A DNA stretch of 15,676 nt, taken from Escherichia coli. GTDB taxonomy: Bacteria > Pseudomonadota > Gammaproteobacteria > Enterobacterales > Enterobacteriaceae. The stretch lies in the NCBI RefSeq assembly GCF_003334305.1, contig NZ_QOWS01000041.1; one strand, written 5' to 3'. Below, piece by piece: positions 15,393 through 15,599 of the stretch (within the stretch, counting starts at the first letter, position 1; every line of letters starts with the position of its first letter). The notes under the pieces were generated by a model. The model had not been told where the DNA came from and searched no databases. It saw only the letters and a list, made by a program, of their open reading frames with translations. Both the position numbers and the translations under genes were made by a program.

Positions 15393-15599
15393 GATTATAA
15401 GATCCCAACACAGGGATTAGGTTATTTCCTGCTGACGATGTGGTATTGAGGATAAAAGTTGGGCAGCGCTTTGGCTTTAAAATGAACTTGTTCAGGACGA
15501 TTGGTAATGGCAAAGCAAAAATAATGTAGGTTATTGGCAAGTTCTCTAGGACGCAGGAGAGCATGAAAAACCCAGGGGCAGTCACTAAATGAAGGGATC

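Follow-up and report, generated by a model that had tools for sequence, protein, structure and literature searches.

The DNA between the sit promoter and IS1 on a ColV-type plasmid block is probably a three-part junction that includes the tip of an ISKra4-family element

The 179 bp that separate the sit promoter from IS1 (15421-15599) are, with a probability that we put at roughly 0.9, inert junction DNA, made of three pieces left by successive events and lying upstream of a sit operon that is driven by its native promoter. Coordinates refer to the window, the whole stretch of 15,676 nucleotides of Escherichia coli contig NZ_QOWS01000041.1 that was analyzed. Its relevant features are as follows.

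14385..15299, minus strand: sitA, first gene of sitABCD; 304-amino-acid open reading frame (ORF), with the annotation SitA in identical plasmids and in chromosomal loci
15300..15420, minus strand: sit promoter/operator region, with a promoter-like site and 88% identity to chromosomal sit loci
15421..15514 (end approximate), no strand assigned: promoter-distal DNA of the sit module, common to chromosomal sit islands (megablast and alignment)
15515..15556, no strand assigned: 42-bp orphan segment, in plasmid-type sit loci only (genome, plasmid, and species scans)
15557..15599, plus strand: left end, truncated by IS1, of an ISKpn19-like insertion sequence of the ISKra4 family (homology)
15600..15676, plus strand: beginning of IS1 with its left inverted repeat; IS1 runs off the window (sequence)
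1..77, minus strand: second, inverted IS1 copy, which closes the aerobactin-sit block on its opposite side (reverse complement of 15600-15676 at 77/77 positions)

The window represents a plasmid block of the ColV type, with iutA-iucDCBA, an MFS transporter gene, crcB, enolase and Tn3 remnants, and sitDCBA; its positions 15300-15599 recur at 100% identity in about 1000 E. coli plasmids. The first base of the IS1 left inverted repeat (GGTGATGCTGCCAACTTACTG...) is 15600. The window stops before insA is complete; in identical plasmids an IS1A transposase with a programmed frameshift is annotated after the repeat sequence, and in the RefSeq plasmid L006 its gene begins 56 bp inside IS1. A promoter consensus scan marks a promoter-like site within IS1 at 15607-15634 (CTGCCA-16-TATGAT). 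Since each end of the window is the exact reverse complement of the other, the aerobactin-sit block is bounded by two inverted IS1 copies; the left ends of both face inward, with the block between them. These inverted copies at both block ends account for the inversion of the aerobactin/sit block between ColV plasmids (PMC2626276). Elsewhere in the block, a near-perfect long palindrome (cacgacataatctgtagtcag...ctgactacagattatgtcgtg) at about 413-472, just downstream of iutA, is probably a terminator. The sequence gtggatacgcccctacatttccagacagctgttatcacttaatc at about 165-225 presumably resembles an IS2-type terminal inverted repeat; if it is one, another insertion sequence scar lies beside the left IS1.

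On the sit side, the plasmid sitA is 97.4 to 97.7% identical to chromosomal sitA. The consensus scan finds a single sigma-70-like site on the sit strand, TTGGGA-16-GATAAT at 15408-15381. Close to it lie a palindrome that we take to be of the MntR type (aaacatagc...gctatgttt, 15332-15353) and an AT-rich site, presumably Fur-box-like, at about 15370-15389. With this promoter-like site on one side and IS1 beginning at 15600 on the other, the preliminary description placed 15421-15599 correctly between the two.

The first of the three pieces belongs to the sit module itself. Chromosomal sit loci that lack IS1 match the window by megablast and alignment over 15301-15514 when they lie on the uspF side (e.g., L001) and over 15301-15487 when they lie on the icd side (e.g., L002), with 83 to 85% identity over the matched span; in the promoter-distal part from 15421 on, identity is 78 to 82% (about 80% in 15421-15487). 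The end of this homology is well marked. In L001, K-12-type uspF-side DNA begins at L001 3199-3206, equivalent to window 15505-15514, and from there on the DNA is common to sit-free K-12 and B strains. A search of other species with a degenerate pattern of the conserved sit upstream DNA returned one further locus, L013, from a second Escherichia species representative, in which sit upstream homology stops at the same uspF junction. Judged from these alignments, the shared sit module ends at window positions of about 15505-15514.

Identity between plasmid and chromosomal loci falls steadily along the locus, from 97 to 99% in the sit genes to 88% in the promoter and 78 to 82% in the distal DNA, which shows no apparent sign of constraint. 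Third codon positions of sitA retain 94 to 95% identity. Divergence upstream of sitA thus exceeds that at synonymous sites, which suggests a possible old recombination edge near the sitA start. Over window 15158-15530, the values against L001 and L002 are 92 to 96% for the 5' end of sitA and 88% for the promoter; further upstream they are about 80%.

The second piece, 15515-15556, has no homologue in E. coli genomes outside the plasmid-type sit locus. Its plasmid matches always fall within a full-length sit-linked match, and an exact 22-mer taken from it matched nothing in a search of one genome per bacterial species. The orphan may represent further donor DNA. One variant affects its far edge: plasmid p19AR0253B (L012) carries, at L012 2553, a 30-bp deletion equivalent to window 15544-15573, in which the junction of the orphan and the ISKra4 repeat is lost; the locus is otherwise identical.

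The third piece, 15557-15599, corresponds to the 43 outermost bp of an ISKra4-family insertion sequence, namely a 26-bp left terminal inverted repeat (about 15557-15582) and 17 bp that follow it. About 700 sit-free plasmids (F-type and Shigella virulence plasmids) match 15555-15597 at 88 to 95%, and about 1800 further plasmids carry a relative of the ISKra4-like element at about 75% identity. Six unrelated contexts agree on the base at which homology sets in (GAGAGCATG...). It starts at GAGAGCATGAAAAA beside an IS911 remnant upstream of ehxC (L003), in senB DNA where an IS3 cuts the element further in (L004), in the ipgB2 region (L005), in a Shiga toxin-producing E. coli (STEC) plasmid (L010), and in a truncated umuC gene (L009). 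The last of these holds an intact ISKpn19 of 2851 bp, the published length of this element (PMC6498974), with 26-nucleotide terminal inverted repeats at L009 3003-3028 and 5828-5853; the boundary base is the first base of the repeat. This copy carries genes for a pRiA4b-ORF3 family protein, a serine recombinase, and a transposase; the transposase is named ISKra4-like/ISKpn19 in RefSeq and reaches 380.7 bits with the ISKra4 family model NF033572 (cut-off, 205).

Over the 43 bp, the window is identical to the left end of intact ISKpn19 at 34 positions and to its relatives in E. coli and Shigella at 37 to 40. The family terminal inverted repeat therefore stands at the element end in the window (15557-15582), but IS1 begins 43 bp into the element and no DDE transposase gene is present, so that the window holds a fragment rather than a member element. 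Within the 12.5 kb downstream in L014, a metagenome contig described below, no right repeat was found at up to 3 mismatches, and a target duplication was likewise not found. That an ISKra4-like element inserted at 15557 is accordingly a reading drawn from the shared boundary rather than from a complete element.

Two other assignments of these 43 bp were considered and rejected. A umuC gene underlies some matches, yet reading 15557-15599 as the 3' end of a umuC-like gene fails: in L009, umuC is on the opposite strand and is simply the gene that ISKpn19 interrupts. Nor is it an IS3-family end: the IS911 remnant beside the L003 match only abuts the same boundary.

All six aligned ISKra4-type left ends keep a mini-ORF of nine codons (ATG...TGA), located at 15564-15593 in the window. 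Its predicted peptide is MKNPGAVTK in the window, MKNLGAAIE in ISKpn19 (L009 3009-3038), and MKKLGAVPK in pBS512 (L005 3007-3036), each ending at a stop codon. In ISKra4-type elements the mini-ORF lies about 65 to 100 bp upstream of the pRiA4b-ORF3 family gene, and the right repeat of ISKpn19 has ATA where the left end has the ATG. It could be a leader peptide, or it could reflect only conservation of the repeat.

The arrangement before IS1 arrived survives in L014, an 87-kb contig that was found by a metagenome scan. This contig is 99.7% identical to window 13210-15599, including an unchanged orphan segment, and homology stops exactly at 15599. Across this point, gaagggatc is followed directly by aataacggtaaaataacc... 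and then by segments with homology to two ISKpn19 genes, pRiA4b-ORF3 and transposase; these segments have internal deletions, and the transposase segment is a gene fragment with 78% identity. Upstream of sit there was thus an ISKra4-like element that was already in decay, and of which IS1 left only the first 43 bp. An uninterrupted copy was not found when a chimeric query (sit upstream DNA plus the ISKra4-like continuation) was compared with the plasmid collection. Five short ORFs of L014 (97 to 126 amino acids; four just past the remnant and one near 9.4-9.7 kb) received no name from NCBIfam, and a sixth, several kilobases further on, is an unrelated ISL3-family transposase.

The IS1 junction is effectively fixed among complete E. 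coli genomes, being present in 1047 complete records against 1048 that carry the adjacent 15490-15562. An apparent junction variant, L008, was rejected as a homopolymer-error assembly of the same junction. There is no 9-bp target duplication: the left flank of IS1 is gaagggatc, and the right flank is unrelated to it in both L006 and L007. IS1 therefore reached its present position with an associated deletion or rearrangement and not by simple insertion. On the far side of IS1, the ColV-type plasmid L006 has a umuC remnant followed by RepFIB. In L007 the far side is L014 from 9717 onward, a match that implies a putative 7.3-kb deletion.

The 7.3 kb missing from L007-type plasmids (L014 2391-9716) hold the decayed ISKra4-like element, an ISL3-family transposase, and a betT-like gene with 82% identity to E. 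coli betT. L007 itself, a plasmid of strain FAH, has lost the sit operon and its promoter; what remains of the sit upstream DNA is a piece of about 192 bp (L007 4008-4198, equivalent to window 15408-15599) enclosed by two inverted IS1 copies. Its right IS1 adjoins a gene pair for a UvrD helicase and an ATP-dependent nuclease, followed by a VapC toxin gene.

Taken in sequence, these boundaries fit the following course of events. The sit module would have arrived with its own upstream DNA to about 15514 and would then have come to adjoin the 42 bp of 15515-15556, perhaps as part of a longer donor segment. Next, an ISKra4-family element related to ISKpn19 may have inserted, its left end at 15557, and degenerated afterwards. 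Finally, IS1 would have landed in, or deleted up to, 15599/15600, leaving the 43 outermost bp of the older element. The surviving IS1-free arrangement documents that IS1 arrived after the ISKra4-family element.

The preliminary description had proposed that the stretch is a remnant of the neighbor that lay upstream of sit before IS1. That proposal holds for 15557-15599, the ISKra4 tip that is uncut in L014, but not for the stretch as a single remnant, since this is a three-part mosaic in which 15421 to about 15514 is sit-module DNA. It had also named contiguity and identity with the upstream region of IS1-free sit loci as the finding that would make the stretch ordinary promoter-distal DNA. 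Contiguous homology with those loci, though not identity, is what we observed for the first ~94 bp; it stops by about 15514 and does not extend to 15515-15599. By its homology, 15421 to about 15514 is ordinary promoter-distal DNA.

Among other explanations, an outward promoter at the IS1 junction fares best, although we consider it improbable. The end of IS1 would supply a -35 element and the ISKra4 remnant a -10 element, so that a hybrid promoter would read leftward into sitABCD and contribute expression that does not depend on Fur and MntR. IS1 ends are reportedly able to create such outward hybrid promoters, as Prentki and colleagues are said to have described in 1986, and practically every plasmid-type sit locus has the junction. 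The one candidate points toward sitA and comprises TTGGCA (15613-15608, in the IS1 end), an 18-nucleotide spacer, and TTTAGT (15589-15584), with 9 of 12 consensus matches. However, this -10 hexamer lacks the conserved A at position 2 (the -11 A), the spacer is 18 nucleotides, and the consensus scan found no promoter on the minus strand at the junction; for the outward hybrid promoter raised in the preliminary description there is thus a weak candidate. About 290 bp, which include the native operators, separate the site from sitA downstream of it; common descent explains the fixation of the junction, and a sit locus exists without the junction in the pre-IS1 contig. A more specific version has the fixed junction between the ISKra4 left end and IS1 serve as an outward promoter of low strength, whose basal sitABCD expression would escape Fur and MntR and aid persistence in ColV-type plasmids; it is if anything slightly less credible. 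The native promoter and operators at 15300-15420 are most likely all that sit expression relies on.

We regard as very improbable that the stretch encodes something, be it a minus-strand ORF of 63 to 65 amino acids, a plus-strand ORF of 29 amino acids, the nine-codon mini-ORF, or a small RNA. The ORFs do exist, and retention of the mini-ORF in every aligned left end speaks for the idea. Among the RefSeq plasmid matches listed, however, no feature is annotated in 15421-15599, an Rfam search of the stretch returned no match at E ≤ 1, and the folds of both strands are less stable than those of shuffled sequences (z = +1.6 and +1.3). The earlier judgment that there is no convincing gene here agrees with these results, as does its view of the minus-strand frames as hybrids. 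These frames run across three or four unrelated modules (IS1, ISKra4, orphan, and sit DNA) and are therefore junction artifacts that cannot predate the junction. Their origin needs some correction: the frame at 15422..15613 starts inside the IS1 repeat, as had been stated for both, but that at 15388..15585 starts inside the ISKra4 remnant, 15 bp short of IS1. Nor are they the only frames, given the plus-strand ORF at 15440..15529, which is broken in the chromosomal homologue L001 (sequence read by eye). The mini-ORF sits inside a transposase-binding terminal repeat, and the genes downstream of it are gone in the window. No conserved ORF thus distinguishes the stretch as a coding gene, and neither annotation, RNA family, nor stable fold marks a structured RNA.

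That the whole 179 bp is ancestral sit upstream DNA into which IS1 inserted directly has a negligible probability, for although the first ~94 bp are homologous to chromosomal sit upstream DNA, this homology stops by about 15514 in every chromosomal sit locus examined, and the last 43 bp are an ISKra4-type element end found in hundreds of sit-free plasmids, which refutes the idea for 15557-15599.

The stretch is an ordinary scar on ColV-type virulence plasmids and is already known in kind. Only two things are added here, an ISKra4-family tip of 43 bp that had no annotation and the sequence of events; they clean up the annotation of a module that is very common on virulence plasmids and imply no new biology. 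The boundaries at about 15514, 15556/15557, and 15599/15600 are usable as descent markers for ColV, ColBM, and related IncF plasmids.

Four known systems bear comparison. In the chromosomal sitABCD islands of E. coli and Shigella (uspF side and icd side), the sit genes are 97 to 99% identical to those of the window, and the promoter and the first ~94 bp (uspF side) or ~67 bp (icd side) are homologous and contiguous; these islands differ in that their upstream DNA is far more diverged (78 to 88%), has nothing in common with the window beyond about 15514, and lacks IS1 and the ISKra4 remnant at this place. ISKpn19 aligns with the window from base 1 of its left terminal inverted repeat (GAGAGCATGAAAAACC...GGGGCAG), but the window keeps only 43 bp, without the transposase, pRiA4b-ORF3, and resolvase genes, the right end, or a target duplication. 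Decayed ISKpn19 relatives on E. coli and Shigella virulence plasmids are closer to it (37 to 40 of 43, compared with 34 of 43 for ISKpn19), and the fragment is a diverged relative rather than ISKpn19 itself. As in the hybrid outward promoters reported for IS1, a TTGGCA in the IS1 end faces outward, here toward sit, but the adjoining -10 candidate in the window appears poor. With the IS1-bounded aerobactin/sit block of ColV and ColBM plasmids (pAPEC-1, pAPEC-O2-ColV, and pColV-K30 type), finally, the window shares its gene order throughout (iutA-iucDCBA, shiF, crcB, sitDCBA, and inverted IS1 flanks); it does not differ from that block and is a standard example of it.
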